64,000 nucleotides of DNA, taken from NCBI GenBank assembly GCA_937983055.1, contig CALJLA010000211.1, positions 12,414-76,413 of the forward strand, given 5' to 3'. Both the position numbers and the translations under genes were made by a program. Below are positions 530 to 41,495 of the stretch, piece after piece. Below the pieces are notes generated by a model. That model had not been told where the DNA came from. It ran no database searches and saw only the letters and a list, made by a program, of their open reading frames with translations. The stretch's first letter is position 1; each line of letters begins with the position of its first letter. This stretch comes from an uncultured Pseudomonadota bacterium. GTDB taxonomy: Bacteria; Pseudomonadota; Gammaproteobacteria; Burkholderiales; Eutrophovitaceae.

Positions 530-1907
530 GGTTGGCCTTCTCGTTGCGCGCTGACGCACCCAGGAGCACCCCTGACATCAAGATAAATTGCTCGAGAATG
601 TGATCGCGCATGATCGAGTCGACCAGTGAGCGCACTACATACATCAGCACGAGGAATATGAGCGCCCACCCGGCTACATCTGCAGCACCCCGGGTCGCCT
701 TCCATCCGGCCACGATCAGGGTAGCGACAAAACCAAACCAGATCGCCAAGCCCGGAAGCCCAACGTTCAAGCCGAAATCGATTACAGAGCTATGGGCATG
801 CGACATGGCGCCTCGGCCATATCGCTCGATCACTAGATCGCGGAACGTGTGTCGGCTGATCTCCAGACCAAGGGGATGCTCGAGCAGCATGGCCAGACCG
901 ACCTTGGCCCACGCAATACGTTGGTAAGCGGACTCTTCAACCGACTTGCCGTCTGCCGAAAGAGGCAATGCAGAGCCCGGCGGATCCAACCATTGCTGAT
1001 GCTGCTCGGTATCCAGTGCAACCGGCACGGTCCTGACGAACGCCTGCCAGCGCGGATCCCAGTGCACGCCGCCCCACAACACACCAGCAACAACTAACCC
1101 GAGCACAATCCCGAAAGCCGCTCGAACTCGCACGGAGTAATGCCTGCGGGCAGTGATCGCCAAAAAGGCCAGCCCGGCACCGCCAATCCCCAGTGCAACC
1201 ACTATCACGCCGTTCCGGGCGCCCGAAGTAACAGCGGCAGCCGTGCCGAGCAACCCGGCAACGACAATCAGGGCAGAGAATCGGCGCCCGAATGGGAGGA
1301 CCCGATTCGCTTGGACCAACGCGAAGCCGAAGACGACCGGGAGCAGCGTAGAGGCAGCGTAGGTTATGTTGGCCTTATGGTCGCTCAGCCCGGAGAAATG
1401 CGGAGAGATGGCACCTGCCCGCGCAAACTCCACAAGGACAAGAAGAATATGCGCCGCCATCAACGCACACAGCGGCAGGACCACGGCAAACCACATCCGC
1501 CGGCCCGACTCATCACAAGGTTCCGCACGTACGCAGTCAAACGCGGTAAACCCAAAAAGGAATGCGAGGATCACGGGGAGCCATTCGCCCCGCCACTCGG
1601 CCAACGAGGCCGCTGGATCGTCGGCAATGAACAAAGCGACGACAAGCGTCCAGAGAATCACTACGCCGAACATGGCAACCGCCCGCCTGGCATCCGGCGA
1701 CGATTCCTTCAGGAGCGGGAAAAGCAGTGGAGCTACGAGCACAAAGCCGGCAAAAGTCAGCATATTCCGCAACCCGATGACGTTCGGGAGCGAGTAGACG
1801 AGGAGGAGTGTTGCGGTCACGAAACAAACCATGACCGGTCGCCACCGCCGCAAGAACTCGATGGTTGAGCCGGCGCCAAGCGTGCCTTGACGTACGCTAT
1901 CCGACAT
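513..1907 (-). CDS. O-antigen ligase/polymerase-family integral membrane protein (WaaL/Wzy_C-like)
   Basis: 464-aa ORF with many hydrophobic segments and one large hydrophilic loop (DPRWQAFVRTVPVALDTEQHQQWLDPPGSALPLSADGK). It lies in the LPS cluster. The call rests on architecture and context only. Confidence 0.55.
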   Translation of the reverse strand: MSDSVRQGTLGAGSTIEFLRRWRPVMVCFVTATLLLVYSLPNVIGLRNMLTFAGFVLVAPLLFPLLKESSPDARRAVAMFGVVILWTLVVALFIADDPAASLAEWRGEWLPVILAFLFGFTAFDCVRAEPCDESGRRMWFAVVLPLCALMAAHILLVLVEFARAGAISPHFSGLSDHKANITYAASTLLPVVFGFALVQANRVLPFGRRFSALIVVAGLLGTAAAVTSGARNGVIVVALGIGGAGLAFLAITARRHYSVRVRAAFGIVLGLVVAGVLWGGVHWDPRWQAFVRTVPVALDTEQHQQWLDPPGSALPLSADGKSVEESAYQRIAWAKVGLAMLLEHPLGLEISRHTFRDLVIERYGRGAMSHAHSSVIDFGLNVGLPGLAIWFGFVATLIVAGWKATRGAADVAGWALIFLVLMYVVRSLVDSIMRDHILEQFILMSGVLLGASARNEKANRAGAR

Positions 1908-1942: not shown

Positions 1943-2989
1943 CTACCGTGCACGCAGCCGCCTGAGCAATCGTGCCAGCCGCCAAGCTTTCAGTGACGCA
2001 GCATATCCGATGCCGACAAACAGAATGAATCCATAGAACAGTATCCATTCGGGCACGCCAAAGCGCCACGCCAAAGTCGCGATGCCGGCAAGGCCGATTG
2101 CCATCGCCAAAGCAATGTAGACGACCTCCTCAGGCCGGTATCCGGCCACCTGGAGAATATGGTGCAGATGGTCGCGGCCCGCCGAAAAGGGGCTGCGACC
2201 CTTGCTCAGCCGCCGCAATATGACAACGCCCATGTCCAGTAGCGGGACCGCGAGGTACCACACGGCGACAATGGGTGGCAGACCATTCGTCGGGCGGCTG
2301 ATTTCGACGCTGAACCAGGTCAGAAGAAAGCCAAGCATCATGCTTCCGGAGTCGCCCATGAACACCGTCGCGCGATGCTGCCACGGGAACCGCATATTCA
2401 ACATCCAGAACGCAAGAATAACAGTGGCACAGACGGCGATCAGCTGGAACAGTGCGGTCTGCATGGTCATCAGTGCTGCCATCGCGAAAAAACAGAGCGC
2501 GACAAGGACCAGGCCGCCTGCCAGGCCGTCCATGCCGTCTGTCATGTTCACCGCATTGATGAGGCCAAGTACGCAAATCACCGTGAACGGAACTGCCCAG
2601 TCATGCAGCAGCAATTCCCCAGCACCAAAAAGATCTCCAAGGTTCATGACGGTGACACCGCCCCAGGAGGTCATGAATAGTGCCGCCGCAATCTGAGCAA
2701 TAAGTTTGCGTCGCGGGGACAGGTCTTTCAGGTCATCGAGAAGGCCTGCAATCAGCAGTATCGCAAGGCCGGCAAAAAGGGCTCGGTAGTCATAAAGCGA
2801 CTCGACGATCAGCAGCGCGCCGAAAACCAGCCCACCCATCATCGCGGGACCACCCACCAGAGGGATGGCGCCTTTATGCCGCTTGCGCCCCCCGGGATGG
2901 TCGACCAGCCCGACCGTCAGCGCTGGACGCGCAAGCAGCCGCACGAGCACAACGGTAGACACAAAGACAAGCACAAAATCGAATAGCAT
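1943..2989 (-). CDS. WecA/WbpL-type polyprenyl-phosphate N-acetylhexosamine-1-phosphate transferase (MraY family), paralog 1
   Basis: 348 aa with the motifs AGLLDDLKDL, NAVNMTDGMDGLAGG and VFMGDSGSMMLGF, typical of the MraY/WecA family. Confidence 0.85.
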   Translation of the reverse strand: MLFDFVLVFVSTVVLVRLLARPALTVGLVDHPGGRKRHKGAIPLVGGPAMMGGLVFGALLIVESLYDYRALFAGLAILLIAGLLDDLKDLSPRRKLIAQIAAALFMTSWGGVTVMNLGDLFGAGELLLHDWAVPFTVICVLGLINAVNMTDGMDGLAGGLVLVALCFFAMAALMTMQTALFQLIAVCATVILAFWMLNMRFPWQHRATVFMGDSGSMMLGFLLTWFSVEISRPTNGLPPIVAVWYLAVPLLDMGVVILRRLSKGRSPFSAGRDHLHHILQVAGYRPEEVVYIALAMAIGLAGIATLAWRFGVPEWILFYGFILFVGIGYAASLKAWRLARLLRRLRAR

Positions 2990-3446: not shown

Positions 3447-3606
3447 CTAAACGCATCGTGCTTACCGTTATATGATTACAATCATTTGCATGTACCACCA
3501 GAAAGTGGCGGTGTGGAATTCAGAATCGGTCACGCTCTATAGTTGCGGTGGAGATTGGTGCCGTCATATTTGACCCGCATTTCGGAAATCCGCGCCGACA
3601 TTAACT

Positions 3607-4452
3607 TCAGTTCGGTAACGCTCGCCGCAATACCTCCCTTACGAAGCGCGCCCAAACTCTTGCAACGTGATAGGGAATCAAAGGCCAGTCGCACGCCAGG
3701 ATTACGAAGGAAGTCCAGTACAAGGGATTCGCATGTGACTTATTCGAAAACACCAGCTTAAGGTACTCACCAAGTTTAGCCACCTTGGAGAAATCCCAGT
3801 ACCCAGATGCGCCCGTGTTCGGTGAATCAAGTACCAGACGATTGTCTGTAATGCATCTAAACCCCTTGCGTGCGGCCCTCATCGTCCACTCGTAGTCTGA
3901 TAGGTAATGAGGAAGGATGTGAGGATGAAAATCACCCACCTGCTTAACAACGGCCCAGCGCACAAAAAGGCCTCTCGTTGAGAGACAGTTGATACTTTCT
4001 GGACTTGTCGCAGTCACAAAATTCAGCCGCCGTACATCGGCATGGACACCGGTTTCAAGAATGCTGCCCGCGCCAGAATCGCGGATTCTTGACAGTAGCA
4101 AGCAATCCGGATTCTCCTGCAGTACACGCATACCAGCGGACAGGAAATCCGGCGCGAAAGTGACATCATCGTTTATGAACAGCACGACATCCGATGACGC
4201 TGGATTAAATTGACGCAGACAGTCGAGCCCCTTTTGCAGGCTGCCTGCCCACCACCATGTACCCGTTCCTCTAATCGCAGTCGCACTTGGGATCGAATTG
4301 AGCACCATTTCGGTGGTTCCGTCCGTCGATCCGTCGTCAATTAAGATCAGGTGAAAATTAGGATACGTTTGGCCGGTGAGGCAATGCACGAACAGCTTTG
4401 TTGTTTCCCTGCGGTTGTGGACCGGGAGCAAGACGTAAATCTTCTCTGTCAT
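3607..4452 (-). CDS. family 2 glycosyltransferase
   Basis: 281 aa with N-terminus YVLLPVHNRRETTKLFVHCLTGQTYPNFHLILIDDGSTDGT (GT-A DxD region). Full-length paralog of ORF 20680..21546. Confidence 0.8.
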   Translation of the reverse strand: MTEKIYVLLPVHNRRETTKLFVHCLTGQTYPNFHLILIDDGSTDGTTEMVLNSIPSATAIRGTGTWWWAGSLQKGLDCLRQFNPASSDVVLFINDDVTFAPDFLSAGMRVLQENPDCLLLSRIRDSGAGSILETGVHADVRRLNFVTATSPESINCLSTRGLFVRWAVVKQVGDFHPHILPHYLSDYEWTMRAARKGFRCITDNRLVLDSPNTGASGYWDFSKVAKLGEYLKLVFSNKSHANPLYWTSFVILACDWPLIPYHVARVWARFVREVLRRALPN

Positions 4453-5399
4453 GCTTTTCGCAGCTCGAAAAGCACCGAATCACCGATACCAGCAATGTCG
4501 AAAGCACGCGTGAGCAGATGATTCACCCGGCTTCGGTGCAATAGAGAAGCAACCTTCACTGCAATTCTCTCGGGCAGAGAGTACCCACCGATGCCAGACC
4601 AGAACGGAGATACTCTCTGCGACCCGCGTCGCGTCGCCAGATGAATCCACTGGTACCTGAGCCACTCGGACTGGGTGATGGTTCCCAACGGCCGGCACTT
4701 CAAGCCCGCTTGCTCCGCCGCAATTTGCATTGACTGCCGCGACAAGAAAGTCAGGTGATACAGTGCCTGCCAGTTTATCCAACGTTGGCGGAAGACTCGC
4801 GCGCCCCAGCCATGCACATTGGGTGTACTCAAGATTGCTACCCCTCCAGGCTTGAGCACTTTTCGGATGCCAGCCATTGTATGTACCGGGTCACGCATGT
4901 GCTCGATTACCTGGTCCAGAGTGACCACGTCAAAGTAACTCTCTGGAAAGTCCGCGGCATCAAAGACGCCAATGGTGACTTTGAAGCCAAAGCGTTCCGC
5001 CACGCGAAGGACGTTCTCGTCTGACTCCACGCCCCACACCTCGCATCCGCGCGAAGCGTGATACCCGAGGGCTTGCCCAAGACCGCTGCCGATATCGAGG
5101 ACACGAACGCCTTGAGGCACCCAACGGAAAGCGGATGCCCGTGCCCCATCCAACCAAGCGGCGAAGCCTCGAATTTCCCGGTGAGGGCGATAGTCATCAA
5201 TGCTCATCGCGCGGCGCGGGTAATAGCTGGTGTAGAGCTGCCTTATTTGCTCATCGGTGAAACCTGCGTTTTCAAGATAGCCATGTCCGCAGGAGTTGCA
5301 CTTATACAATGGAAAAATGCCAGGGTAACCGTAGCGGTCATCGTAAAGGATGAACTGCTCTGACGTATCCGGCCCAGCGCAGATAGGACAGTCACTCAC
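4449..5399 (-). CDS. class I SAM-dependent methyltransferase with N-terminal CxxC...CxxC zinc ribbon
   Basis: 316 aa with CPICAG...CNSCGH followed by VLDIGSGLGQALGY (SAM motif I). Its start overlaps the next gene by 4 nt. Confidence 0.75.
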   Translation of the reverse strand: MSDCPICAGPDTSEQFILYDDRYGYPGIFPLYKCNSCGHGYLENAGFTDEQIRQLYTSYYPRRAMSIDDYRPHREIRGFAAWLDGARASAFRWVPQGVRVLDIGSGLGQALGYHASRGCEVWGVESDENVLRVAERFGFKVTIGVFDAADFPESYFDVVTLDQVIEHMRDPVHTMAGIRKVLKPGGVAILSTPNVHGWGARVFRQRWINWQALYHLTFLSRQSMQIAAEQAGLKCRPLGTITQSEWLRYQWIHLATRRGSQRVSPFWSGIGGYSLPERIAVKVASLLHRSRVNHLLTRAFDIAGIGDSVLFELRKA

Positions 5400-6288
5400 A
5401 GCCCAGAACCATCAGCACGTGATCAGGATCTATCGAGGGCAAACCATCGTATTGACCCCGCACCAATGCTGGGCCAGCCCTTCGCACCACACGGTACCAA
5501 GACTCCCGATACGCTCTGGCCGCATAAGTTCGCACTTTTCGGCGTAGGACGAAATTTCCCGTGCCAAATCTGAAGAAGCGAGTGGATGGAAAGACCACAT
5601 GTTCGGGATAGCGCAGGTACCACCACCTTCCCCGACACAGTCGAGCCGAGATGGACGCGATGTCCCCGGTCAGGATAACTAGCGTTCCGTTTTCGGATAG
5701 CAATTCCCGGCATCTGCGAAAGAAGCCAGGAACGTCGTAAAGATGCTCGACTAGATCGAACGCCGTGATGAGATCAAACTGCCCTTTGACCTGGTCGATC
5801 GCAGAAAAGTATCGGTGTCCCTTCTTCTCGAGAATCTCACGGCATGCAGACGAGTACTCCACTCCCGCCGTGTCGCAGCCAACGGCCCTGAGGAAGTCCA
5901 GAAGCTGCCCCGTGCTGCTTCCGATATCAAGCGCACTGGAGGACTCCTTCGCGCACGCGCGCAGGGTTTCAATAACCTCCCGGCACTTGATGTGCTCGAC
6001 GTTTTCATTCGACCAGCGATTTCCACTTTCCCCGCTGCTGTACATCGCGGCTGCTTGCTCGGGGTGCACCACATTTTGTTTGAACCAAGAACCGCAGTCA
6101 GTACACTTCCAGAGTTCGGACTTGCGACTTGGCGCGATTTCGTGTGTTGAGAAGCCGATGTGCCGAACGACTGGTATTCCCCCGAGCTGACTGATTCGCG
6201 TCGACTCGCAGAGCGGGCAATTATGCCGCCGGAAATCATTGTCGATTGTCTCGATCACCAGAGGCTTCCGCCGCGCTCCCTGGCCCAA
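5392..6288 (-). CDS. class I SAM-dependent methyltransferase with N-terminal zinc ribbon
   Basis: 298 aa with CPLCES...CTDCGS followed by ALDIGSSTGQLLDFL. Same architecture as the downstream neighbour. Confidence 0.75.
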   Translation of the reverse strand: MGQGARRKPLVIETIDNDFRRHNCPLCESTRISQLGGIPVVRHIGFSTHEIAPSRKSELWKCTDCGSWFKQNVVHPEQAAAMYSSGESGNRWSNENVEHIKCREVIETLRACAKESSSALDIGSSTGQLLDFLRAVGCDTAGVEYSSACREILEKKGHRYFSAIDQVKGQFDLITAFDLVEHLYDVPGFFRRCRELLSENGTLVILTGDIASISARLCRGRWWYLRYPEHVVFPSTRFFRFGTGNFVLRRKVRTYAARAYRESWYRVVRRAGPALVRGQYDGLPSIDPDHVLMVLGCE

Positions 6289-6998
6289 CTCTCGTAAAGC
6301 TTCAGGTCGTTCTCGTTATCTACCTCAAACCAGCGGGCAGTAATTGGCACAGTGTCAATGCGCCTTCCGTCGGCGATCAACCGTTTCAATAGCGAGGTCA
6401 TGTCAAGCTTATCGCGTGTCTCGGGGCCAAGCAGGTCTAACAGGCCGGTGACCCAGCCCCAGGCTGCCGGCGAGAACTTAAGCAGCCCCATGTATTGGCC
6501 CTCGATCTCATGGAGACTGGTCACTCGGCTTCCAATCTCCGTCAAAGTGCCCCGACGGTCGACTCTCAGCGATTCGGCGTCGGACAGAGGGTCCGCAAAG
6601 CGCTCGCTCCACAAGTCTAGCCAGTTAACGTCATAGGTAATGGCAAGGTCACCGCGCACTGCAGCGAGTTTCGCCACAGTTTCTCCCGGATAAACGATAT
6701 CCGAATAACTTACGATACAGGCATCATTCGACAGCCATTCACTGGCACACACCAGCGACATGACCATGTTGGTTTCGGCCCAGCGCGGATTCTCGAATGT
6801 TGCCACGCCTGGATAGCTGATCTTCGCGGCCATGTAACCCCGTACCACACCGATCTCCGTAATACCGGCTTCGCGAAGAGCTTGGATTTGCCATTCGATG
6901 AGCGGCTTACCTGCCAAAATGGTCAAGCATTTGGGCGCATACTGCGTAAGCTGCCCCATGCGACTACCGCGTCCCGCAGCAAGAACAATTGCCTTCAT
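6255..6998 (-). CDS. LicC-like nucleotidyltransferase; candidate CTP:phosphoglutamine cytidylyltransferase (Cj1416-like)
   Basis: 247 aa with N-terminus MKAIVLAAGRGSRMG (nucleotidyltransferase P-loop). 4-nt overlap with the C26 hydrolase gene. The functional call comes from gene context. Confidence 0.6.
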   Translation of the reverse strand: MKAIVLAAGRGSRMGQLTQYAPKCLTILAGKPLIEWQIQALREAGITEIGVVRGYMAAKISYPGVATFENPRWAETNMVMSLVCASEWLSNDACIVSYSDIVYPGETVAKLAAVRGDLAITYDVNWLDLWSERFADPLSDAESLRVDRRGTLTEIGSRVTSLHEIEGQYMGLLKFSPAAWGWVTGLLDLLGPETRDKLDMTSLLKRLIADGRRIDTVPITARWFEVDNENDLKLYESWARERGGSLW

Positions 6999-7603
6999 TG
7001 TCCTTCGGATCCAAAAACACGGGCAAACATCTCCATATCAGGCGCACGAAATGGGGAAATGCGCTCCGGATGCCACATCACGCCATGAATGGCATGACGG
7101 CGATGCTGGACCGCCTTGATGACGCCATCCTGCGCGACAGCACGGACTTCGAGTTCCGGGACCGTGGCCGTCGAACCGAAGCTGTGATAGCTGTTTACAG
7201 ATTGCGGCGTGCCGTCCGCGATGACAATCTGTTCAGGAGCCACATGACCAGTAACAGCTTCGAGGCGAACACCGAAGAAATCCTGAACCGCTTGCATGCC
7301 CCGGCACACGCCGATCAGTGGAACTCGCTCGTCGATCGCGTAGCGGATCAATGCCGCCTCCGTTGCGTCGCGCTCCGGGGCGTTTCCTCCATAGGCCAAC
7401 AGATCGCCTCCACCGGTCAAAAGGATGCCATCGATCTGGAAATTCGCCAGCAGGCTGCGCAGTGTCGATGGATTGTTCGGCACTAGCAGCGGGACAACGT
7501 CCACGCGCGCGAGGAATTCCGTCCACCGCTGGTCAAGGGCGTCGCGGCGTTCGCCGTAGGTGGGCACGATTTCAACTCGCTGCGTGACCGCGACGCGCTT
7601 CAC
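6995..7603 (-). CDS. peptidase C26 / class I glutamine-amidotransferase-like hydrolase; candidate gamma-glutamyl-CDP-amidate hydrolase (Cj1417-like)
   Basis: 202 aa with the nucleophile motif GVCRGMQ and the His motif GVMWHPE. 4-nt overlaps on both sides. Confidence 0.65.
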   Translation of the reverse strand: MKRVAVTQRVEIVPTYGERRDALDQRWTEFLARVDVVPLLVPNNPSTLRSLLANFQIDGILLTGGGDLLAYGGNAPERDATEAALIRYAIDERVPLIGVCRGMQAVQDFFGVRLEAVTGHVAPEQIVIADGTPQSVNSYHSFGSTATVPELEVRAVAQDGVIKAVQHRRHAIHGVMWHPERISPFRAPDMEMFARVFGSEGQ

Positions 7604-9948
7604 CTGAGGATCCGGACCTGTTTGTTAGCGCAGTCAATTTCGAGCACTTTGGCCCGCGACCATTCCTGGAAGTAAGCTTCACCGGCACCGATTACGGCTG
7701 GAACGTTCAGTTCCGCGGCACGAATCGCCATGTGAGAATTGACGCCCCCGAACTTTGTAATGAAGCCAACGATGCCCTGCGCGAAGATCCAATCGAATCC
7801 AGGATCGGCACTTGGGATGAGCAAAATCTTTCCCCTGATACCCTCACGCCCCGCATCGGTTGAGGCCACCTCCCCATTCGCTCGGCCGAGCGTGATGAAG
7901 TTCGGCTCCGAACACGGTAGGTGGAACGCAAAGACTTCGTCAGGGGAGGTAATCAGCGGCGGCAGGTTGATACGCTGAGCAATCGCGTAGGCGGACTCGC
8001 CAGCTGACACTGATCTCAGCAGCACTTCGCCCGGGCTCGCGCTCGACGCATACAGATCCTTGATGCACGCAATATCAGAGAACGAGCATTGCTCGACCGT
8101 CAATCCGTGCTGGCGACCAAGTTCCCCGAACTCCACCAGCACATCACTCAGGCTTTTCGTGAAGACAAACTTCGCGTACTCGCGGCCTTCGATTGCACAC
8201 TTGATGAAATCGAACAGCCCCAGCACGTCATGCTCCAGCCCATGCTCGACCAGAAGCGCCTCGGTGCGACGGAGCTGGTCGAGCGACAACACAAATGGAG
8301 CCACGGAAGGGTTCGTGTGTACTGCCGCCTTCTCCCAGTCGAAATAAAGCTCGGGCTTCTCGTCGTATCGAGGAGAGAGGATGTCATATGTGCCCGGGCG
8401 AAGATGACCATAACGCTGCAAAAATTCTGCACGATCCAACTGGTAGTAATCTCGAGCCATGCGCGAGCTCACAGTCTCTAGCGACGCCATAAAGCGCTGA
8501 TAGTCTTCCGGGCTTAGAATGCCCACCGCCACCAGCGATTTCAGTAATTGGACGGCGATGAAGCCTGCGCGGGCCAGTCCGGCGAAAGGGAGCGTTCCGT
8601 AACGCTTGCAGTCCTCGATCAACCAATAGATCTTCGATACGCGTTCTAGGTCGCTTCCCAGTATCGCTGCGCGTCGTGATTCGAGTGCCTGGATTTTTTC
8701 CACGTCCTTCCGCCAGAGACCGCGCTCCCCATGGATAATGCCGTTGGTCAGTCGCCGCAGACTGCCAGCAAAGCCGTCGATCTCCGTATGTGTGAAGCCG
8801 GCTTCGGCGAGAACATTCAATCGCTCAGGGAGGTCCAATGTATAGCACGAGAAGATGATCTCGAATTCAACCTTGTCGTGATAGTTCGGCGATTGGACCA
8901 GGCGATCTATGTAGTAATTAGTCAGCTTTTCCGCCAATGCCGGCTCCACATCCGCGGGGATGAAGGAATTGAAGCTCACGCGCACATCGATGTAGGGTAA
9001 CCCGCCGAAGCTCACCAGCAGCGGAAAGCTGCGCAGGTTCCGGTATCCGTAGTTGTCCCGCTGGTAGGCCCAGATGCTGTCGGTGATCAATTCCTTGTAC
9101 AGCGACAAAGCTAGGGGCCTTGGCCGCACGCCAACGATCTCTGCTGGATTCCAGTCCGGCATGACGCCAAAGACACTTCGAGTGCCGTGAAGGTACGGAT
9201 GCGGGCGCATCATTGCGCGTACCCGTGCGTGAATTCTTTCAAGGGCAATACGATGCGACTCAGAGTCGGCGCAATGCGCAACTGCTGCCCCCAGCGGACG
9301 CACTTGTAGCAGAAACAATTGGCCTTCGGCATCGCATGCAAATTCGACATCAATCGCATCCGTACCGAGCAATGTTTCGAGTTCGCGCACAAGTTCGATT
9401 ACACGGACCAGCGATTGCGGAGCCTTTACGGGGCAATGCTTGCTGAAGTAGAACGTCTTGACGTGGTTAGTCCCTCCGGACGTGACCGTGCCCGTGGAGC
9501 CCGAGCTGTTGTCGTAATTCACCACGAAATAGGGTCCGGCGTTATTCGGATCTATGCTGAAGGCAACGCCGCTCAGCGCGACATTCTCCAGCATGGGCTG
9601 GATGAAGATCTGGTCCTTACCATCGCGTTCACCGTACGAATCGATGACGCGAGCTACCGCAGAGCTCAAAGCCTCCGCGCCGTACACATTGCTCACCGAA
9701 AGGAATTGCCCGGCGAGGCTTCCATTCGCCGCGTCTTCGGAGAGCGCCGATGATCGCACGATGAGCGCTTTATCGAACCAGCCGTGTGCCGCAATGCGCG
9801 CGAGCACTCCGGCCTCGTCTCTCTGCCAAGCCTCGATCGTGAAGCGTTCCTGCGGGAGAACCAATGCCGACCGAACTAGCGGCGCTAACCGCTCCAGCGT
9901 TTCGGCCTTTGTCCCGAAGAGCATCTCTATTTTGCCTGAACGATCCAT
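7600..9948 (-). CDS. PEP-utilising (PPDK/PpsA-like) phosphotransferase; candidate L-glutamine kinase (Cj1418-like)
   Basis: 782 aa. The N-terminus is a PEP/pyruvate-binding ATP-grasp region (IVRSSALSEDAANGSLAGQFLSVSNV). The C-terminus is a mobile His domain (FGGVNSHMAIRAAELNVPAVIGAG, His 44 residues from the end). An alternative ATG lies at 9924. Confidence 0.65.
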   Translation of the reverse strand: MDRSGKIEMLFGTKAETLERLAPLVRSALVLPQERFTIEAWQRDEAGVLARIAAHGWFDKALIVRSSALSEDAANGSLAGQFLSVSNVYGAEALSSAVARVIDSYGERDGKDQIFIQPMLENVALSGVAFSIDPNNAGPYFVVNYDNSSGSTGTVTSGGTNHVKTFYFSKHCPVKAPQSLVRVIELVRELETLLGTDAIDVEFACDAEGQLFLLQVRPLGAAVAHCADSESHRIALERIHARVRAMMRPHPYLHGTRSVFGVMPDWNPAEIVGVRPRPLALSLYKELITDSIWAYQRDNYGYRNLRSFPLLVSFGGLPYIDVRVSFNSFIPADVEPALAEKLTNYYIDRLVQSPNYHDKVEFEIIFSCYTLDLPERLNVLAEAGFTHTEIDGFAGSLRRLTNGIIHGERGLWRKDVEKIQALESRRAAILGSDLERVSKIYWLIEDCKRYGTLPFAGLARAGFIAVQLLKSLVAVGILSPEDYQRFMASLETVSSRMARDYYQLDRAEFLQRYGHLRPGTYDILSPRYDEKPELYFDWEKAAVHTNPSVAPFVLSLDQLRRTEALLVEHGLEHDVLGLFDFIKCAIEGREYAKFVFTKSLSDVLVEFGELGRQHGLTVEQCSFSDIACIKDLYASSASPGEVLLRSVSAGESAYAIAQRINLPPLITSPDEVFAFHLPCSEPNFITLGRANGEVASTDAGREGIRGKILLIPSADPGFDWIFAQGIVGFITKFGGVNSHMAIRAAELNVPAVIGAGEAYFQEWSRAKVLEIDCANKQVRILR

Positions 9949-10691
9949 GCCCTAGTCTTGTACGGTACAGGCACAACGTCTAGGTCGCGTATCTCTTCGG
10001 AGATTGCTTCCATTATCCTCGCAAATCGTTCCGGGCCGGCCTGTGCCTGGATATCGTTAACCGACCGCCATGCCCCGAGGTACCGCTCTTTCGTCATCAA
10101 CTCCTGATGCGGCGCTTCCAGAAAGAGGAGACGATGAAAGTGGCCAGTACTTAACATCGTCTCTTCGATGCCTTGTGTGTATTTTGCGGAACCCGACGAG
10201 ATTCTTGTGATTCCAGGCACCATGTTGTGAATTCGGGCTTCTATCCGTTTGTGCAATTCGCTGTGCTCCAAATCTCTAGGATTCCAGAGCGCCGTGAAAA
10301 AGCCGCCCGGTCTCAAAATGCGGTGAAATTCCGGTAGCGAGAGTTCCGGCTTGGTCCAGTGAAACGAAGAAGCCATCAAAACCCAGTCTACGCAGCGATC
10401 CGGCAGCCCGGTGCATTCTGCAGTTCCCGCGGCCCACTTAAAGGCTTCTGTCGTCGTTCGCTGGTTAATGGCCTCGCTGCGCATCGCAGCGTTGGGCTCC
10501 ACAGCGTATCCTCGCAAACCGAGTTCACAGAGATTCTCGGTGAGCTTGCCCGTGCCGGCTCCTACGTCGGCTACCGTGAATCCTTCCCTGAATGCGCCGA
10601 CGTAAGCGGCAATCGCACCCAGCACTCTCGAAGAGTAACCAGTGCGGTGAATATAATCCTTGGCCAAACTCGTAAAATCTCCACGTTCCAC
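9927..10691 (-). CDS. class I SAM-dependent methyltransferase
   Basis: 254 aa with VADVGAGTGKLTENL (motif I) and a downstream VDWVLMASSFHW segment. Confidence 0.75.
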   Translation of the reverse strand: MERGDFTSLAKDYIHRTGYSSRVLGAIAAYVGAFREGFTVADVGAGTGKLTENLCELGLRGYAVEPNAAMRSEAINQRTTTEAFKWAAGTAECTGLPDRCVDWVLMASSFHWTKPELSLPEFHRILRPGGFFTALWNPRDLEHSELHKRIEARIHNMVPGITRISSGSAKYTQGIEETMLSTGHFHRLLFLEAPHQELMTKERYLGAWRSVNDIQAQAGPERFARIMEAISEEIRDLDVVPVPYKTRAWIVQAK

Positions 10692-10700
10692 AATGGCTCC

Positions 10701-11237
10701 TCACGTAAAAACGAGCCGACCGAACTTTGCAGACAACATTGCCACAATTTCTTCAGGTGTCTTGCCGCCGTCGTTGTCTATGACGAGTTCTGGACTGACT
10801 GGCTCTTCAACTGGCAAATCGACGCCCATCACATCTTTCACCTCACCGCGCAGCGCCCGACTGTAAAGTTGTTTTTGGTCCCGCTCGATCAGCACTTTCA
10901 TCGGCGCGCGCAAGTAGATCTCATGGTAGCCAGGAATTTGGCCACGGTTCCACTCTTGGCATTCGCGAAATAGCGAAATCGTCGCGCAAACCACATCGAT
11001 GCCCTGATCAGAGAGCATCTTGCATAACCTCGAATTGCGCATCGCGCTCTTGAGGCGCTCCTCACGGGAATGGCCCAAGTCATTGCCGAACACTTCGCGC
11101 AGGATGTCCCCGTCGAGGAACACGGAGGCCGGATGGCGCTCGCGCAGCAGTCCAAAAAACAGTCTTCCGATCGTAGTCTTGCCCGCGCCCGACAGACCGG
11201 TGAACCAGAAGACTCTGCCCGTTTTGACATCCATCAC
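10701..11237 (-). CDS. adenylylsulfate-kinase-fold kinase (CysC-like, or Cj1415-like CDP-phosphoramidate 3'-kinase)
   Basis: 178 aa with P-loop VFWFTGLSGAGKTTIG and LDGDILR. It deviates from the canonical CysC LDGDN / FISP motifs as I remember them (DGDI, TISLF here). It abuts the sulfotransferase-fold gene with no gap. Confidence 0.6.
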   Translation of the reverse strand: MMDVKTGRVFWFTGLSGAGKTTIGRLFFGLLRERHPASVFLDGDILREVFGNDLGHSREERLKSAMRNSRLCKMLSDQGIDVVCATISLFRECQEWNRGQIPGYHEIYLRAPMKVLIERDQKQLYSRALRGEVKDVMGVDLPVEEPVSPELVIDNDGGKTPEEIVAMLSAKFGRLVFT

Positions 11238-12362
11238 CTAAGTCCCCGACCCGATCACGCGCCGCACCCGTCGCAACAGCCCTCGTTTCAGGCGCGCTAG
11301 CGGTATCAGCTCCGGATCGGGCGGAACTGTCGAAGGCGTCACCTGAGCAAAACAGTCTCGAATTCGAGATTCTATGCTGGCGAGGTACTCGGCCAGGCTG
11401 GCCTTGAGCTGGGCCAGTTCGTAGGCGGGCAGATTGGCCCGCGTAATGAGGTCAGAATTCAGGGCCATGGCGAAGTCGACGGTTTGGCGAAAAGCGTCTT
11501 CCATAAACGAACTGTTGCCGGCCCGTTCTAGTACTGCAGGATCCAGGGTGACTTGCTCGAAGAATCGCAAGCACGATATGTGTCGTTCAAGAGGAATCGC
11601 AACTTCTTGCATCGCAGGGGAAGGATAGCCGAGCCGAAAGAGTAGGCCGGAGCAAAGTCGTTCGATGCGAGCAACGACACTGGGATCGATTGTTCCCGCC
11701 TGCCATTCCATCGGTCTGCCGGAGCGGTTGATGAGCTGAGCGTCTTCCGGGTGGTCGGCTCGATAGGCACGCTCGGCGGCAGCGGCACGATCAAAGGTCG
11801 AGTTCCGCACGGCTCGATCGACGTCGGCCGTATCAAATTCAAGACCCATCGCATTCAGGACGTTACGGAGCGTCCGCCCGGCGTCCGCCTTGTAGTCTTC
11901 GAATCGCACCACGGTCACCCGCGGGTGAGAGAGCCATCCTTCGTTGAACAGTTTCCAGTTCAAAACCTTGTCTAGCAGAGTATTCACGTCCGGAAACGCT
12001 GCAAACTCGGAAAAACTCAGCTGCGACCCTTCTCGCTTGTAGCGAGAGTAGAGCGCATCGCGCGGGTCCCTTACGAAATAGATGATTTCCGAGCCCGCGT
12101 ATCTATCCGATCTCCACTCGTGCATCCACTGCACTTGAATATCGTCACGGAAATCGAAACTCTCATGGTCGCTCAAGGCGGGCAGCCATTTTCGGAGCAG
12201 GTTTTCATGGGGACTGAGCGACCAACGACCTCTCGCGCGACGCCACATTCCGTCGGGCGAGTAGCGGAAAGTCTTGATTCCCAGCTCAAGTAGGCAGTTG
12301 ATCAGCCATGTCGCCCCCGAGGGCTCTCTTGGCGAGGCGAGATATACCTTTCTGCTAGCCAT
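11238..12362 (-). CDS. sulfotransferase-fold protein with ~150-aa helical C-terminal extension
   Basis: 374 aa. LASPREPSGATWL resembles the 5'-phosphosulfate-binding loop (PKxGTTW). YFVRDPRDALYS resembles the 3'-phosphate-binding RDPRD motif. The C-terminal third is Ala/Leu-rich (AYELAQLKASLAEYLASIESRIRD). Confidence 0.6.
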   Translation of the reverse strand: MASRKVYLASPREPSGATWLINCLLELGIKTFRYSPDGMWRRARGRWSLSPHENLLRKWLPALSDHESFDFRDDIQVQWMHEWRSDRYAGSEIIYFVRDPRDALYSRYKREGSQLSFSEFAAFPDVNTLLDKVLNWKLFNEGWLSHPRVTVVRFEDYKADAGRTLRNVLNAMGLEFDTADVDRAVRNSTFDRAAAAERAYRADHPEDAQLINRSGRPMEWQAGTIDPSVVARIERLCSGLLFRLGYPSPAMQEVAIPLERHISCLRFFEQVTLDPAVLERAGNSSFMEDAFRQTVDFAMALNSDLITRANLPAYELAQLKASLAEYLASIESRIRDCFAQVTPSTVPPDPELIPLARLKRGLLRRVRRVIGSGT

Positions 12363-13614
12363 TGAGCGAAAGGGTCCAATCTGCAGCGAGGTTCACAGCT
12401 CCCCAGCGCCCGTCGAAGGGAATCCCGCTCTTGAACGACGGCAGGACTTCGAACTGCTGGCAATTGTCGACCCACTCCAGAAACGTCGGCTTTTGGTCAA
12501 ATGCGCCAGCGGAAATCGTGTAGTTTCCCGGCATCAAGCCAAGACCACGCGTGCGAAAGGCAAGCCGGAAACGCCCCGGCGCAATCGCGACCGTTTCAAC
12601 ATCACGCTGATGTGAACTAAGCAGCGGCCGTCCGGCGGAATCGAACACGATGAGCCAGAACGAAACTTGCTCTGACGTGCCCGACTCCAGCGTGAACTCC
12701 ACTGAAAAGTCCTCGCCGATCAGGAAGGAGTTTGCAGGCTGACCCTCGCCATTGAATATCGAGGCAGACAGAAACCGCACACGACCGTCACCTCGGTTGC
12801 GCATCGCGGGCGTGATATCGACTGTCGTGTGCTTTTCGGCAACGCGATTGTACTCGGCCACAACTTCCATAGTCGCGCCGACGGACTGAACCGTTCCGAC
12901 CGAAAGAAGGACACATCGATTGCATAGCGCTGCTATGGTCCCCAGGTTGTGGCTGACGAAGAGCACGGTGCGCCCGGACTTGCCAATCTGCTCCATCTTG
13001 GCAAGGCATTTCTTCTGGAATAGCAGATCACCCACGGCGAGCACTTCGTCGACCACGAGGATCTCCGACTCCAGATTTGCGGCCACTGAGAACGCAAGGC
13101 GCACATACATGCCCGTCGAGTAGCGCTTTACCGGCGTGTCGAGGAACTTCTCCACTTCGGAAAAGGCGACGATCTCGTCGAACTTGCGGCGAATCTCGGC
13201 GTTAGTCATTCCAAGAATGGCGCCATTGAGAAAGATATTCTCGCGTCCCGTTAGCTCCGGATGGAAACCTGTGCCGACCTCCAGCAGGCTTGCCACGCGC
13301 CCCCTAATGATCGCCCGCCCGCGGCTCGGGTCAGTAATGCGGCTAAGGATTTTCAGCAACGTAGACTTGCCGGCACCATTGCGACCGATGATCCCGATTC
13401 GCTCCCCTTGCGCCACCTCGAACGAGACATCCTTGAGAGCCCAGAAACGTTCGGTCGAATTCTGGCTCGGGGTCTGCCTTTCGTGACTCGCGCGCCGGAA
13501 CATTGCGCGAACCGAATCGCTCACCACGTCACGAAGCGCGACGTATCGGCGATCCCGCTGATGCCGAATCAGGTACTGCTTCCCCAGCCCTTCTACTTTG
13601 ATTGACCATGCCAT
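12355..13614 (-). CDS. wzt: O-antigen/teichoic-type ABC exporter ATP-binding protein Wzt with C-terminal extension
   Basis: 419 aa with Walker A GRNGAGKSTLLK, signature YSTGM and Walker B ILVVDE. About 170 extra beta-rich C-terminal residues sit where Wzt carbohydrate-binding domains occur. Confidence 0.8.
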   Translation of the reverse strand: MAWSIKVEGLGKQYLIRHQRDRRYVALRDVVSDSVRAMFRRASHERQTPSQNSTERFWALKDVSFEVAQGERIGIIGRNGAGKSTLLKILSRITDPSRGRAIIRGRVASLLEVGTGFHPELTGRENIFLNGAILGMTNAEIRRKFDEIVAFSEVEKFLDTPVKRYSTGMYVRLAFSVAANLESEILVVDEVLAVGDLLFQKKCLAKMEQIGKSGRTVLFVSHNLGTIAALCNRCVLLSVGTVQSVGATMEVVAEYNRVAEKHTTVDITPAMRNRGDGRVRFLSASIFNGEGQPANSFLIGEDFSVEFTLESGTSEQVSFWLIVFDSAGRPLLSSHQRDVETVAIAPGRFRLAFRTRGLGLMPGNYTISAGAFDQKPTFLEWVDNCQQFEVLPSFKSGIPFDGRWGAVNLAADWTLSLNG

Positions 13615-13619
13615 GTGAG

Positions 13620-14447
13620 TCAGATCACGTCCGCGAACGAACGCTCTGTCTGACGAAAATAGATCACACCGGCCGCGAGCATGATCGTCGAGACCAAGAT
13701 GCTGGACACGAGTACTCCGGGGTCGAGAACATAGTTCGGAAGTAGACTCCAGCGGAAGCCTTCAATTATGCCAACCATCGGGTTAAGCGAATAAAGCCAG
13801 CGCCAATGCTCGGGAATAACCGCGAGGCCGAACCCCACTGGCGAAATGAACAAGCCAAACTGAATCATGAAAGGTACAACATAGCGAAAATCCCGATAGC
13901 GCACGTTCAGGGCAGCCAACAAAAGCGTAAGCCCAATTGACACGAGTATCGCTAACACCAGGAACGCTGGTAACAAGAATGCGCGTGGGCTCGGCAAGAA
14001 CTGATACCAGACCAAAAGAACGGCAAGAAGGGCCAGCGAAATGAGAAAATCGACGAAGCTCACGACCACTGCGCTGGCCGGCACAATCAGCCTGGGAAAG
14101 TAGACTTTGGAAATAATGTTTGCATTCTGGATCAGGCTGTTGCTTCCCTCAGAAACCGCATTGGCAAAGAAATGCCACGGCAGCATCGCGCAGAACACCA
14201 GAATCGGATAGGGAACTCCGTCGGAAGGCAGCCGTGCGATGCGGCCGAACACTATGGTGAAGACGACCATTGTGAGGATCGGCCGCAGCACACTCCACGC
14301 CACGCCGATGACGGTCTGTTTATAGCGCACGAGAATATCGCGCCAGGCCAGGAAAGCGAACAACTCGCGGTACGCCCAGAGGTCACGCCAGTAACGACGC
14401 TCGGTGCGGCCTGCCTCGATTACGATTTCCTGTTGGCTACTTGCCAT
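13620..14447 (-). CDS. wzm: ABC-2 type polysaccharide exporter permease Wzm
   Basis: 275 aa with six predicted TM segments. The N-terminus RDLWAYRELFAFLAWRDILVRYKQTVIGVAW is typical of the ABC-2 family, and the gene is adjacent to wzt. Confidence 0.8.
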   Translation of the reverse strand: MASSQQEIVIEAGRTERRYWRDLWAYRELFAFLAWRDILVRYKQTVIGVAWSVLRPILTMVVFTIVFGRIARLPSDGVPYPILVFCAMLPWHFFANAVSEGSNSLIQNANIISKVYFPRLIVPASAVVVSFVDFLISLALLAVLLVWYQFLPSPRAFLLPAFLVLAILVSIGLTLLLAALNVRYRDFRYVVPFMIQFGLFISPVGFGLAVIPEHWRWLYSLNPMVGIIEGFRWSLLPNYVLDPGVLVSSILVSTIMLAAGVIYFRQTERSFADVI

Positions 14448-19654: not shown

Positions 19655-19737
19655 AGCGGGCAATTCGCCCGCGACCGCGAGCGCGGCGGCAACACCCGGC
19701 GAGTTGGTAACGCGCAGTTGTTCCACGGCCTCGAATT

Positions 19738-41465: not shown

Positions 41466-41495
41466 GGCGTTTGGACCGCGAAAACGGCGCGGCGA

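Follow-up and report, generated by a model that had tools for sequence, protein, structure and literature searches.

A putative phosphoramidate donor pathway and candidate transferase beside a Wzm/Wzt O-polysaccharide exporter

Does an O-antigen locus in a betaproteobacterial MAG encode the donor chemistry of Campylobacter O-methyl phosphoramidate (MeOPN), and if so, which enzyme would transfer the group and where would it be placed? In C. jejuni NCTC 11168 the MeOPN chemistry is carried out by the L-glutamine kinase Cj1418, the cytidylyltransferase Cj1416, the gamma-glutamyl-CDP-amidate hydrolase Cj1417 and the CDP-amidate 3'-kinase Cj1415 (PMC11800397), with transcription in the order cj1419-cj1418-cj1417-cj1416 (PMC3907429). 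An original prediction, made from a 64,000-nucleotide stretch of DNA (hereafter the window), placed a pathway of this type in a Wzm/Wzt O-antigen locus, and we have followed this up using curated protein families, structural comparison and gene neighbourhoods.

The locus and its donor enzymes

All of the predicted open reading frames are present on the minus strand (Table 1), and a Pfam search returned the domains that had been assigned to them, namely PPDK_N with PEP-utilizers, NTP_transf_3, Peptidase_C26/GATase and APS_kinase, together with three class I methyltransferases. The quoted motifs (GGVNSHMAIRA, MKAIVLAAGRGSRMG, GVCRGMQ, GVMWHPE, FWFTGLSGAGKTT and LDGD) were likewise found; the catalytic His does lie in GGVNSHMAIRA, but as His739 it is 43 and not 44 residues from the end. 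Nine genes had been counted between 4449 and 12362 where there are eight, and the reported junction overlaps of 8, 0, 22, 4, 4, 34, 8 and 4 nt are reproduced only when the Wzt and GT2 genes are included, with a 9-nt gap between K178 and MT254 omitted from that list. When GlnK782 is started at the ATG at 9924, as in the public gene call (774 aa), the 22-nt overlap shortens to 4 nt. The lower-GC block is real, with a GC content of 0.54–0.59 over about 2 to 15 kb compared with 0.61–0.71 elsewhere, as is the O-antigen export context, with Wzm and Wzt encoded directly upstream. Minor miscounts apart, the original observation is confirmed. The same window also holds a WaaL-like gene, WecA-like genes, gmd, manC, a heptosyltransferase gene and waaA, and the cassette is flanked by two WecA/WbpL-like paralogues, the copy in Table 1 being 59% identical to that at 14736-15989. 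GlnA shares a 90% cluster with MAGs of Burkholderiales/Betaproteobacteria.

Table 1. Genes of the cassette and its immediate surroundings, with proposed roles.
Feature	Position	Strand	Evidence
Wzm, ABC-2 permease of O-polysaccharide exporter	13620..14447	-	PF01061 ABC2_membrane, E 4e-23
Wzt, ATPase with C-terminal carbohydrate-binding domain (residues about 270-419)	12355..13614	-	ABC_tran + Wzt_C
ST374, sulfotransferase-fold, proposed phosphoramidate transferase	11238..12362	-	374 aa; Sulfotransfer_1/3
K178, APS-kinase-fold, proposed cytidine diphosphoramidate 3'-kinase (Cj1415 role)	10701..11237	-	178 aa; PF01583, E 4e-33
MT254, class I methyltransferase (Methyltransf_11 type)	9927..10691	-	Pfam
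GlnK782, L-glutamine kinase homologue	7600..9948	-	782 aa; PPDK_N + PEP-utilizers
C26_202, C26/class I amidotransferase fold, proposed gamma-glutamyl-CDP-amidate hydrolase (Cj1417 role)	6995..7603	-	202 aa; PF07722, PF00117
NT247, LicC-like, proposed CTP:phosphoglutamine cytidylyltransferase (Cj1416 role)	6255..6998	-	247 aa; NTP_transf_3
MT298, Methyltransf_23 methyltransferase, N-terminal CxxC...CxxC motif	5392..6288	-	Pfam
MT316, Methyltransf_23/MetW-type methyltransferase, N-terminal CxxC...CxxC motif	4449..5399	-	Pfam
GT2 glycosyltransferase, 4-nt overlap with MT316	3607..4452	-	PF00535
WecA/WbpL-like initiating transferase (GT family 4)	1943..2989	-	PF00953
WaaL-like O-antigen ligase	513..1907	-	PF04932 Wzy_C, E 2e-9

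GlnK782 matches the NCBIfam model NF004508 over its full length with 961 bits, while the PEP synthase and rifampin phosphotransferase models reach no more than 51 bits, and we rejected both of these identities. It has more than 7,200 homologues, some of which carry the JGI name 'glutamine kinase', and those from different phyla share long invariant blocks. The best NCBIfam model for C26_202 is NF045546 (gamma-glutamyl-CDP-amidate hydrolase; E 1.6e-33, full length), and both motifs, GVCRGMQ with the Cys and WHPE with the His, are present in the protein; its 116.5 bits are, however, below the equivalog cutoff of 250 bits for this model. For NT247 the best PDB match is LicC (1jyk), and JGI gives the name 'L-glutamine-phosphate cytidylyltransferase' to homologues that are 57–72% identical. 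K178 passes NF004041 (195 bits, cutoff 127) and fails the apsK equivalog TIGR00455 (125 bits, cutoff 138.7), while its similarity to genuine APS kinases is still clear (7yq0, E 4e-30).

Other genomes contain the same cassette. The block Wzm-Wzt(CBD)-ST-kinase-MT-GlnK-C26-NT-MT-MT, where CBD denotes the carbohydrate-binding domain, has an identical order in a spirochaete MAG (L004), and the same order minus the C26 gene, which is absent from the cassette, in a Bacteroidetes MAG (L003). In Pelagibius (L002) the same genes are arranged differently, with wzm-wzt lying within the cassette, flanked by its final two methyltransferase genes. Synteny places the C26 gene behind GlnK in L002, L004 and four further loci (L125, L126, L127 and L128), the NT247 gene is syntenic in every cassette examined, and a five-gene core of K, GlnK, C26, NT and MT254 recurs in Acidobacteria, Azospirillum and further loci. 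Furthermore, fusion to a kinase domain with 50–60% identity to K178 was seen in 42 of the 120 homologues nearest to GlnK. With the same order across phyla, and some of the four enzymes fused together, their assignment to unrelated pathways finds no support.

Curated models, automatic names, synteny and gene fusions together support the presence of a Cj1415-Cj1418-type donor pathway in this Wzm/Wzt O-antigen locus. On the basis of homology, synteny and fusions, GlnK782 would phosphorylate L-glutamine on its amide nitrogen, NT247 would join phosphoglutamine and CTP to form CDP-L-glutamine, C26_202 would cleave this to glutamate and cytidine diphosphoramidate, and K178 would then phosphorylate the 3'-OH, giving 3'-phospho-CDP-amidate as a PAPS-like donor. 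The window and the C. jejuni MeOPN locus therefore have four enzyme architectures and accompanying class I methyltransferases in common, along with the gene sub-order MT-GlnK-C26-NT (cj1419-cj1418-cj1417-cj1416) and, presumably, the product, CDP-phosphoramidate 3'-phosphate. They differ in that the window belongs to a betaproteobacterial MAG, its target would be a Wzm/Wzt-exported O-polysaccharide and not a KpsMT capsule, its kinase gene lies upstream beside the transferase gene and not at the operon end, and it has three methyltransferases instead of two.

A sulfotransferase-fold candidate for the transfer step

The C. jejuni MeOPN transferases Cj1421 and Cj1422 are built from 244 conserved N-terminal residues, a segment that spans the membrane and a C-terminal DUF2972 (PF11186). 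The original prediction recognised no such transferase and, unlike C. jejuni, the window does lack a DUF2972-type protein, this domain being absent from ST374 and all 58 family members tested, but the adjacent gene encoding ST374 was overlooked. This 374 aa protein is predicted to be soluble, and its AlphaFold model (pLDDT 91.7) adopts a sulfotransferase fold, with the top 50 Foldseek matches in the PDB all being PAPS-type sulfotransferases. Four residues (R98, D99, P100 and S106) do not vary within the family alignment, R98 and S106 being the 3'-phosphate-binding pair, and a P-loop-like SPREPxGxTW varies very little; the conserved 3'-phosphate-binding RDPxD...S motif and an NRxGxxGEW motif likewise recall PAPS enzymes. 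In each of the six contexts that were read the kinase gene comes after the ST gene, with the two co-oriented and abutting or overlapping in five and convergent in the remaining one (the P0238 locus), and, as with Cj1421/Cj1422, the ST374 gene is upstream of the donor genes.

Sequence and modelled structure make ST374 the best candidate for the missing transferase, and we propose that it uses 3'-phospho-CDP-amidate as a PAPS analogue. It would bind the 3'-phosphonucleotide through the conserved 3'-phosphate-binding Arg/Ser and move the phosphoramidyl group onto a sugar hydroxyl with release of 3',5'-CDP, which would be the same role as that of Cj1421/Cj1422, where a sugar hydroxyl receives phosphoramidate from a 3'-phosphorylated cytidine donor. 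The parallel with the PAPS cycle extends to an APS-kinase-fold enzyme making the 3'-phosphorylated donor and to CysQ-like Inositol_P phosphatase genes within the module in L125 and L127, which would fit the release of a 3',5'-bisphosphonucleotide. The differences are that the proposed nucleotide is cytidine and that a phosphoramidyl, instead of a sulfuryl, group would be transferred.

The membership of ST374 in the sulfotransferase family is clear, and PAPS-dependent sulfation is a possible activity. Two separate chemistries could then coexist, with K178 a true APS kinase and ST374 sulfating the O-polysaccharide, while the cytidine diphosphoramidate from GlnK, C26 and NT serves another transferase or purpose. 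The Pfam and PDB similarities of both proteins fit this, as do the fusion of some ST-like domains to canonical Sulfotransfer_1 domains and the several sulfotransferase-domain genes near the module in Azospirillum (AZO_p6). However, the two model scores of K178 and its resemblance to GlnK-fused kinase domains argue for a place in the donor pathway; there is a single kinase in the cassette, and a kinase is required for the chemistry in C. jejuni (PMC11800397). Moreover, no ATP sulfurylase gene was found in any cassette and no sulfate-activating enzyme genes in those read (L002, L003, L004 and L125). In the ST374 loop PREPSGATW, Pro14 occupies, by a by-eye alignment, the position of the 5'-phosphosulfate-binding Lys of canonical PKSGTTW. 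One locus does have the ST-K pair without GlnK, but the partner there is a fusion of PEP mutase with a cytidylyltransferase, which points to another cytidine-linked phosphorus donor and not a sulfate donor. We regard two separate chemistries as unlikely, and retain ST374 as the proposed phosphoramidate transferase. A point against the proposal is that cassettes linked to an ST-like gene are few among GlnK loci (735 compared with >7,200 hits), which means that a different transferase must serve in most GlnK systems.

Methylation, export and a putative terminal cap

MT254 holds the position relative to GlnK782 that cj1419 holds relative to cj1418. Its orthologues (39–54% identity) separate the kinase from GlnK in five loci (L002, L003, L004, L125 and L128); in L126 and L127, where ST and Wzm/Wzt are both missing, they follow GlnK-C26-NT. 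MT298 is kept in L002, L003, L004 and L125, and its orthologues (34–37% identity, E 2e-63) include the methyltransferase domains fused C-terminally to ST-like domains in P0341 and P0371. Because of these fusions MT298 is the best candidate among the conserved methyltransferases for O-methylation of the transferred group; alternatively, MT254 could act at the nucleotide level. MT316 has orthologues in L002, L004 and L125 (34–45% identity), and a GT2 orthologue (42% identical) is found at the equivalent place in Pelagibius. In C. jejuni, knocking out cj1419 and cj1420 had no visible effect (PMC11800397). The final product may be O-methyl phosphoramidate, or else a plain or differently methylated phosphoramidate.

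The cassette adjoins Wzm-Wzt(Wzt_C) in the window, L002, L003 and L004, with the Wzm orthologues of the latter three being 30–34% identical to the Wzm of the window. The best PDB match of Wzt is full-length Aquifex aeolicus Wzt (E 1e-65); its carbohydrate-binding domain matches that of A. aeolicus marginally (E 0.003) and is 43–51% identical to cassette-linked domains of three other phyla or classes. In E. coli O9a, wbdD stands next to wzm-wzt, and the methyl phosphate made by WbdD is the export signal. WbdD is a bifunctional kinase-methyltransferase (PMC3482155), and recognition of caps by the carbohydrate-binding domain is established for this exporter class (PMC9445017). The window resembles this system in that a methylated phosphorus group would be made by enzymes encoded beside wzm-wzt, Wzt has a C-terminal carbohydrate-binding domain, and the ST-like family includes transferase-methyltransferase fusions. 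It differs in using a dedicated nucleotide donor, not ATP, a sulfotransferase fold, not a protein-kinase fold, and phosphoramidate, not phosphate, at a terminal location that is proposed only. By analogy, the modification would be at the non-reducing terminus, halting polymerisation, and this (methyl)phosphoramidate cap would be read by the Wzt carbohydrate-binding domain as an export signal.

The donor pathway and ST374 could also operate as proposed with the phosphoramidate placed in-chain or on the core, leaving the carbohydrate-binding domain to read a terminal sugar methylated by MT298 or MT316. Such a sugar, 3-O-methyl Rha/Man, is the cap in A. aeolicus (PMC9445017), and the Trp lidding its methyl pocket appears aligned with 'EWVDN' of the window's Wzt. 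C. jejuni carries MeOPN on internal repeat-unit sugars (PMC11800397), phosphoramide is known on the LPS core of Xanthomonas and Shewanella, and gmd, an rmd-like gene and manC in the locus fit a 6-deoxyhexose polymer. Against this, the ST, K and donor genes travel with wzm-wzt in identical order in the window, L003 and L004, the cassette occupies a wbdD-like position, the cassette-linked carbohydrate-binding domains are unusually conserved, and the ST-MT fusions mimic the bifunctional terminator WbdD. An in-chain or core location seems to us rather improbable, and we consider it reasonably probable that 3607-14447 is a self-contained module that places phosphoramidate on an ABC-transporter-exported O-polysaccharide through the donor pathway, transfer by ST374 and a terminal cap.

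The context had been described as new, which holds only for the literature searched: many genomes contain the cassette, and automatic JGI annotation already names relatives glutamine kinase. Since the same gene block occurs in several bacterial phyla, this rare P-N decoration of sugars is probably much commoner than published work indicates.

Organisation of the cassette and its surroundings

The cassette is a block of minus-strand genes (3607–14447) transcribed from 14.4 to 3.6 kb in the order Wzm, Wzt, ST374 (a sulfotransferase-fold protein), K178 (an APS-kinase-fold kinase), the class I methyltransferase MT254, GlnK782 (an L-glutamine kinase homologue), C26_202 (a peptidase C26 hydrolase), NT247 (a LicC-like nucleotidyltransferase), two further class I methyltransferases, MT298 and MT316, and a GT2 glycosyltransferase. 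From Wzt to GT2 the successive junctions are overlaps of 8 and 0 nt, a 9-nt gap, and overlaps of 22, 4, 4, 34, 8 and 4 nt. The original prediction had listed these same overlap values, which we reproduced, but it had missed the gap, and Wzt and GT2 must be counted in for the series to hold; it had also placed nine genes within 4449–12362, where there are eight ORFs. All motifs that it quoted were found in the cassette ORFs. If GlnK782 starts at the ATG at 9924, as in the public gene call (774 aa), its 22-nt overlap is reduced to 4 nt.

The GC content is 0.54–0.59 over ~2–15 kb compared with 0.61–0.71 elsewhere in the window, and no tRNA marks the borders of this lower-GC block. The cassette is flanked by two WecA/WbpL-like initiating transferases, one on each side and 59% identical to each other, which suggests that the Wzm/Wzt-cassette block came with its own initiating enzyme beside a resident glycan cluster. 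Along with a WaaL-like ligase, the window also contains more GT2 and GT1 glycosyltransferases and methyltransferases, as well as gmd, an rmd/fcl-like reductase gene, manC, a heptosyltransferase gene and waaA, and is an LPS region. Its assignment to a high-GC proteobacterium was correct, since GlnA shares a 90%-identity cluster with Burkholderiales- or Betaproteobacteria-labelled MAGs; the window comes from a 79-kb contig of an uncultured betaproteobacterium. Two ORFs gave no Pfam match, one of 388 aa in the neighbouring glycan cluster and one of 1140 aa, and the latter may be a spurious high-GC ORF that overlaps real genes on the other strand.

Coordinates of the cassette genes and other features of the window
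Feature	Position	Strand	Remark
WaaL-like ligase	513–1907
WecA/WbpL-like initiating transferase	1943–2989	minus
GT2 glycosyltransferase	3607–4452	minus
MT316 methyltransferase	4449–5399	minus	316 aa
MT298 methyltransferase	5392–6288	minus	298 aa
NT247	6255–6998	minus	247 aa
C26_202	6995–7603	minus	202 aa
GlnK782	7600–9948	minus	782 aa
MT254 methyltransferase	9927–10691	minus	254 aa
K178	10701–11237	minus	178 aa
ST374	11238–12362	minus	374 aa
Wzt	12355–13614	minus	Wzt_C, E 2e-12
Carbohydrate-binding domain (CBD) of Wzt	12358–12822
Wzm	13620–14447	minus
WecA/WbpL-like initiating transferase	14736–15989	minus
388-aa ORF	18734–19900
GlnA	33390–34802
1140-aa ORF	39546–42968

Enzymes of the probable donor pathway

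In C. jejuni, Cj1415–Cj1418 convert glutamine, ATP and CTP into CDP-phosphoramidate 3'-phosphate (PMC11800397), the donor for O-methyl phosphoramidate (MeOPN), and the sub-order methyltransferase-GlnK-C26-nucleotidyltransferase of the window is the same as cj1419-cj1418-cj1417-cj1416 (direction of C. jejuni transcription from PMC3907429). The presence of a Cj1415–Cj1418-type donor set, the core of the original prediction, was supported by family models, JGI names, synteny and kinase-GlnK fusions, and this pathway very probably yields 3'-phospho-CDP-amidate. The roles proposed are L-glutamine kinase (Cj1418, EC 2.7.3.13) for GlnK782, CTP:phosphoglutamine cytidylyltransferase (Cj1416) for NT247, gamma-glutamyl-CDP-amidate hydrolase (Cj1417) for C26_202 and cytidine diphosphoramidate 3'-kinase (Cj1415) for K178.

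GlnK782 is formed of an N-terminal PPDK_N ATP-grasp domain (PF01326) and a C-terminal PEP-utilizers swivelling domain (PF00391), with the catalytic His739 located in GGVNSHMAIRA, 43 residues from the end and not 44 as first counted. This block, as GGxNSHMAIRA, and other long blocks are kept in ≥97% of 124 GlnK family members from several phyla. Using NCBIfam, GlnK782 scored 961 bits on NF004508 (cutoff 501) across model positions 7–788 of 789, a family that presumably takes in Cj1418. Grouping with PpsA or rifampin phosphotransferases had been named beforehand as evidence against this assignment; we rejected GlnK782 as PpsA or a rifampin phosphotransferase (Rph), because the models for PEP synthase, PPDK and rifampin phosphotransferases gave it ≤51 bits. 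More than 7,200 homologues were detected, and several at 58–60% identity carry the JGI name 'glutamine kinase'.

C26_202 matched PF07722 and PF00117 and has the catalytic Cys-His pair in GVCRGMQ and GVMWHPE. Its best NCBIfam model was NF045546 (gamma-glutamyl-CDP-amidate hydrolase), matched over the full length with an E-value of 1.6e-33 and ahead by 16 orders of magnitude, with a score under the equivalog cutoff (116.5 vs 250 bits); it is therefore a relative and no certified equivalog, and we infer its hydrolase role from its position after GlnK in six loci. NT247 is a LicC-type nucleotidyltransferase, with an NTP_transf_3 match and LicC as its best PDB match, and its gene, which lies next to those of GlnK and C26 in the window, is syntenic across all cassettes. 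For relatives at 57–72% identity the JGI name is 'L-glutamine-phosphate cytidylyltransferase', and in older entries 'choline kinase'.

K178 has an APS-kinase fold and a PF01583 match, and it passes NF004041 (195 vs a cutoff of 127 bits) while failing the apsK equivalog TIGR00455 (125 vs a cutoff of 138.7 bits). A kinase domain 50–60% identical to K178 is present at the N-terminus in 42 of the 120 closest GlnK homologues, and at the level of domain architecture this fusion ties K178 to the glutamine-kinase pathway and not to sulfate assimilation.

PDB searches with MT254 and MT316 returned generic class I methyltransferases alone, with MT316 weakly like phosphoethanolamine N-methyltransferases. 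At the N-termini of MT298 and MT316, ahead of the Rossmann domain, there are paired CxxC...CxxC motifs (CPLC...CTDC and CPIC...CNSC, respectively), reminiscent of a small zinc ribbon. No Cj1415–Cj1418 chains were returned by the PDB searches. Primer CS-1246 (PMC3907429) had no match when scanned against genome contigs, and the cj1415 start ATGAAAAATAATCC combined with a Walker-A pattern matched at least 120 unrelated AT-rich loci in genome contigs, with no cassette-protein homologue among the loci listed.

A sulfotransferase-fold candidate for the transfer step

No Cj1421/Cj1422-like transferase had initially been recognised in the locus, but the ST374 gene, which was left undescribed, provides a candidate. 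ST374 gave modest matches to Sulfotransfer_1 and Sulfotransfer_3 and no match to NCBIfam. Its AlphaFold model, created from 58 relatives, had a pLDDT of 91.7 and a pTM of 0.86, and using Foldseek against the PDB the best 50 matches were PAPS-dependent sulfotransferases or retinol dehydratase (11–18% identity; E down to 3e-7). R98, D99, P100 and S106 are invariant across the family and lie within 'FVRDPRDALYSRY', which we take to be the counterpart of the sulfotransferase 3'-phosphate-binding RxxxDxxxS motif, while a strand-loop-helix 'SPREPSGATW' and 'NRxGxxGEW', which is similar to RKGxxGDW, are nearly invariant. ST374 thus shares with PAPS-type sulfotransferases both the fold and the 3'-phosphate-binding Arg/Ser (R98, S106). 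When its loop S-P-R-E-P-S-G-A-T-W is compared with the canonical 5'-phosphosulfate loop P-K/R-S/T-G-T-T, Pro14 would take the place of the canonical Lys of PKSGTTW, a placement made by eye, with the Pfam match beginning at residue 93 and leaving this loop unaligned.

The fold, R98/S106 and the 0-nt junction between the ST374 and K178 genes together indicate an enzyme with a 3'-phosphonucleotide-holding fold abutting the putative 3'-kinase. ST374 would take 3'-phospho-CDP-amidate, a PAPS analogue, as its donor, and transfer would set free 3',5'-CDP in the way that sulfation sets free PAP. We lean towards ST374 being the transferase for 3'-phospho-CDP-amidate, and a PAPS analogue needing a PAPS-type enzyme would also account for the presence of a 3'-kinase in the pathway. 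A phosphatase removing this bisphosphonucleotide would be expected if transfer frees 3',5'-CDP. CysQ-like Inositol_P phosphatase genes were present in two of the loci, from unrelated genomes, one (15414–16175) inserted among enzymes in the window's order in a further genome (L125), and the other (3406–4224) beside a fused kinase-GlnK in an Acidobacteria MAG.

It is unlikely that K178 and ST374 are instead an ordinary APS kinase and sulfotransferase functioning in sulfation. They do look like APS kinases and sulfotransferases, and some ST-like domains are fused to canonical Sulfotransfer_1 domains, but the joining of a K178-like kinase domain to GlnK and the score of K178 below the apsK cutoff both speak against this, as do the single kinase per cassette and our finding of no sulfate-activating genes in any cassette read.

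In C. jejuni the transferases Cj1421 and Cj1422 have 244 N-terminal residues in common, and behind these lie a transmembrane segment and a C-terminal DUF2972/PF11186 domain (PMC5808241). PF11186 was absent from ST374 and from 58 ST-like relatives at E ≤5, which on sequence grounds places ST374 outside the Cj1421/Cj1422 family as DUF2972 defines it, and we rejected ST374 as their orthologue; nor was the domain seen in the other cluster ORFs scanned. ST374, a small sulfotransferase-fold protein predicted to be soluble, is a concrete and testable candidate for the missing transferase.

Spread of the module, Wzt and the putative cap

Distant ST374 relatives (40–54% identity) sit in the same cassette. 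The gene order in a Spirochaetota MAG is that of the window (Wzm, Wzt with Wzt_C, ST-like, kinase, MT254-type, GlnK, C26, NT, MT298-type, MT316-type). A Bacteroidetes MAG (GCA_016213435.1) also has this order but lacks a C26 gene, both in the GlnK–NT interval and within 10 kb, and an MT316 orthologue, with a Methyltransf_21 gene in the MT316 position. Pelagibius sp. CAU 1746 keeps the window's run from the ST-like to the MT298-type gene; its Wzm and Wzt are inside the cassette, where they separate the last two methyltransferase genes, and a GT2 comes after. The core of kinase, GlnK, C26, NT and MT254 is also present in the Acidobacteria MAG, in another MAG (L126) and on plasmid AZO_p6 of Azospirillum lipoferum 4B, with 39–60% identity to the window proteins. 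On this plasmid (NC_016588.1, 27861–37327), from a cultured plant-associated bacterium, the genes have generic PGAP names, the kinase is the C-terminal part of an 847-aa protein that has a sulfotransferase-like 'FVRNPFDWYISSY' motif at its N-terminal end, and two more sulfotransferase-domain genes are nearby. The module is common to several phyla, as its loci span 36–68% GC. More distant, plasmid-borne GlnK homologues (H4–H14; 34–38% identity) were found in Vibrio alfacsensis, Roseovarius pelagicus, Cupriavidus taiwanensis, Agrobacterium vitis S4 and Microvirga lotononidis.

A profile searched against 1.84 billion representatives matched 268 ST-like proteins with E ≤1e-30, rising to 735 with E ≤1e-10, which is few relative to GlnK (735 vs >7,200). 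In P0341, P0371, P0311 and P0307 an N-terminal ST-like domain is fused to Methyltransf_23, with Methyltransf_24 also in P0307, and the fused Methyltransf_23 domain is orthologous to MT298 (34–37% identity; E 2e-63), an architecture that links putative transfer with methylation. Tandem sulfotransferase domains, one ST374-like and one strong canonical Sulfotransfer_1/3, were observed in P0369, P0282, P0350, P0360 and P0385; these proteins could be double transferases or tie to real sulfation. In the P0238 locus (JGI sample 3300056388) APS-kinase-like, MT254-type and second Sulfotransfer_3 genes come after an ST-like gene and lie on the other strand; the locus also encodes a PEP mutase-cytidylyltransferase fusion, an adenylation/PCP pair and a PKS but no GlnK, C26 or NT. 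The pairing of the trio with PEP mutase-cytidylyltransferase in a locus lacking GlnK suggests that ST-like, kinase and MT254-type proteins are able to serve other cytidine-linked phosphorus donors, and the locus may make a phosphonate natural product by the same 3'-phospho-cytidine donor logic.

In E. coli O9a, wbdD is positioned next to wzm-wzt. The modification genes in the window and in the Bacteroidetes and Spirochaetota MAGs hold this same position, which by analogy supports a terminal (methyl)phosphoramidate. WbdD is a kinase-methyltransferase that caps the O9a mannan with methyl phosphate (PMC3482155), and its bifunctional build is paralleled by the ST-like/Methyltransf_23 fusions. In Wzm/Wzt systems with capping, chain growth ends once the terminus is modified, and the Wzt CBD recognises this modification (PMC9445017); the window Wzt likewise has a C-terminal CBD at residues ~270–419 and modification genes adjoining wzm-wzt, as is also the case in the Bacteroidetes and Spirochaetota MAGs. 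Cassette-linked CBDs are 43–51% identical among the betaproteobacterium, the alphaproteobacterium, and the Bacteroidetes and spirochaete MAGs, while the window CBD matches that of A. aeolicus, which reads 3-O-methyl sugars (PMC9445017), only with an E-value of 0.003. The simplest reading of these comparisons is that the cassette-linked CBDs would share a distinctive ligand. 'EWVDN' in the window CBD lines up with 'HWIDN' in its A. aeolicus counterpart, whose Trp appears to be Trp362, the lid of the methyl-binding pocket (PMC9445017), and this hints that the ligand in the window may also be methyl-bearing.

Whether the product is O-methylated we regard as evenly balanced, and the idea that it caps the chain end, where Wzt would read it, is a tentative proposal. 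It is also possible that MT298 or MT316 provides a methyl-sugar cap, with the phosphoramidate elsewhere. The full reading, in which sulfotransferase-fold enzymes would be an unrecognised class of phosphoramidyl transferases acting on 3'-phospho-CDP-amidate, and (methyl)phosphoramidate both a chain-ending cap and the ticket for export through the Wzt CBD, in a module common to phyla, is rather doubtful as a whole.

In the literature searched, MeOPN has been described as Campylobacter-only (PMC6429109) and glutamine kinase as C. jejuni-specific (PMC9561416), with MeOPN genes beyond the genus Campylobacter proposed only in a preprint on Borg elements. How the group is transferred and methylated has yet to be worked out even in Campylobacter (PMC11800397, PMC12409886), and Cj1419 and Cj1420 are without an assigned function (PMC11800397). 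In the literature searched we did not find MeOPN and sulfotransferase combined, and found no mention of phosphoramidate in the papers listed on O-antigen and Wzt. The donor pathway is of a known kind, and what is new against this literature is its link to an O-antigen exporter that bears a CBD, the occurrence of one cassette across phyla, and a sulfotransferase-fold candidate for transfer. Cultured carriers for direct chemistry are Pelagibius sp. CAU 1746, with the full cassette, and Azospirillum lipoferum 4B, with the donor module, and a GlnK homologue is plasmid-borne in the cultured bacteria Vibrio alfacsensis, Cupriavidus taiwanensis and Agrobacterium vitis.

Thousands of bacteria, environmental or associated with plants, carry genes for the donor pathway, and one recurrent, portable module wires it to an O-antigen ABC exporter. 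Phosphoramide groups whose origin is unexplained have been reported for the LOS of Xanthomonas campestris and the LPS core of Shewanella MR-4. If the full reading is true, P-N-linked glycan caps would be common outside Campylobacter, and it would suggest how the phosphoramide of Xanthomonas and Shewanella LPS is made.
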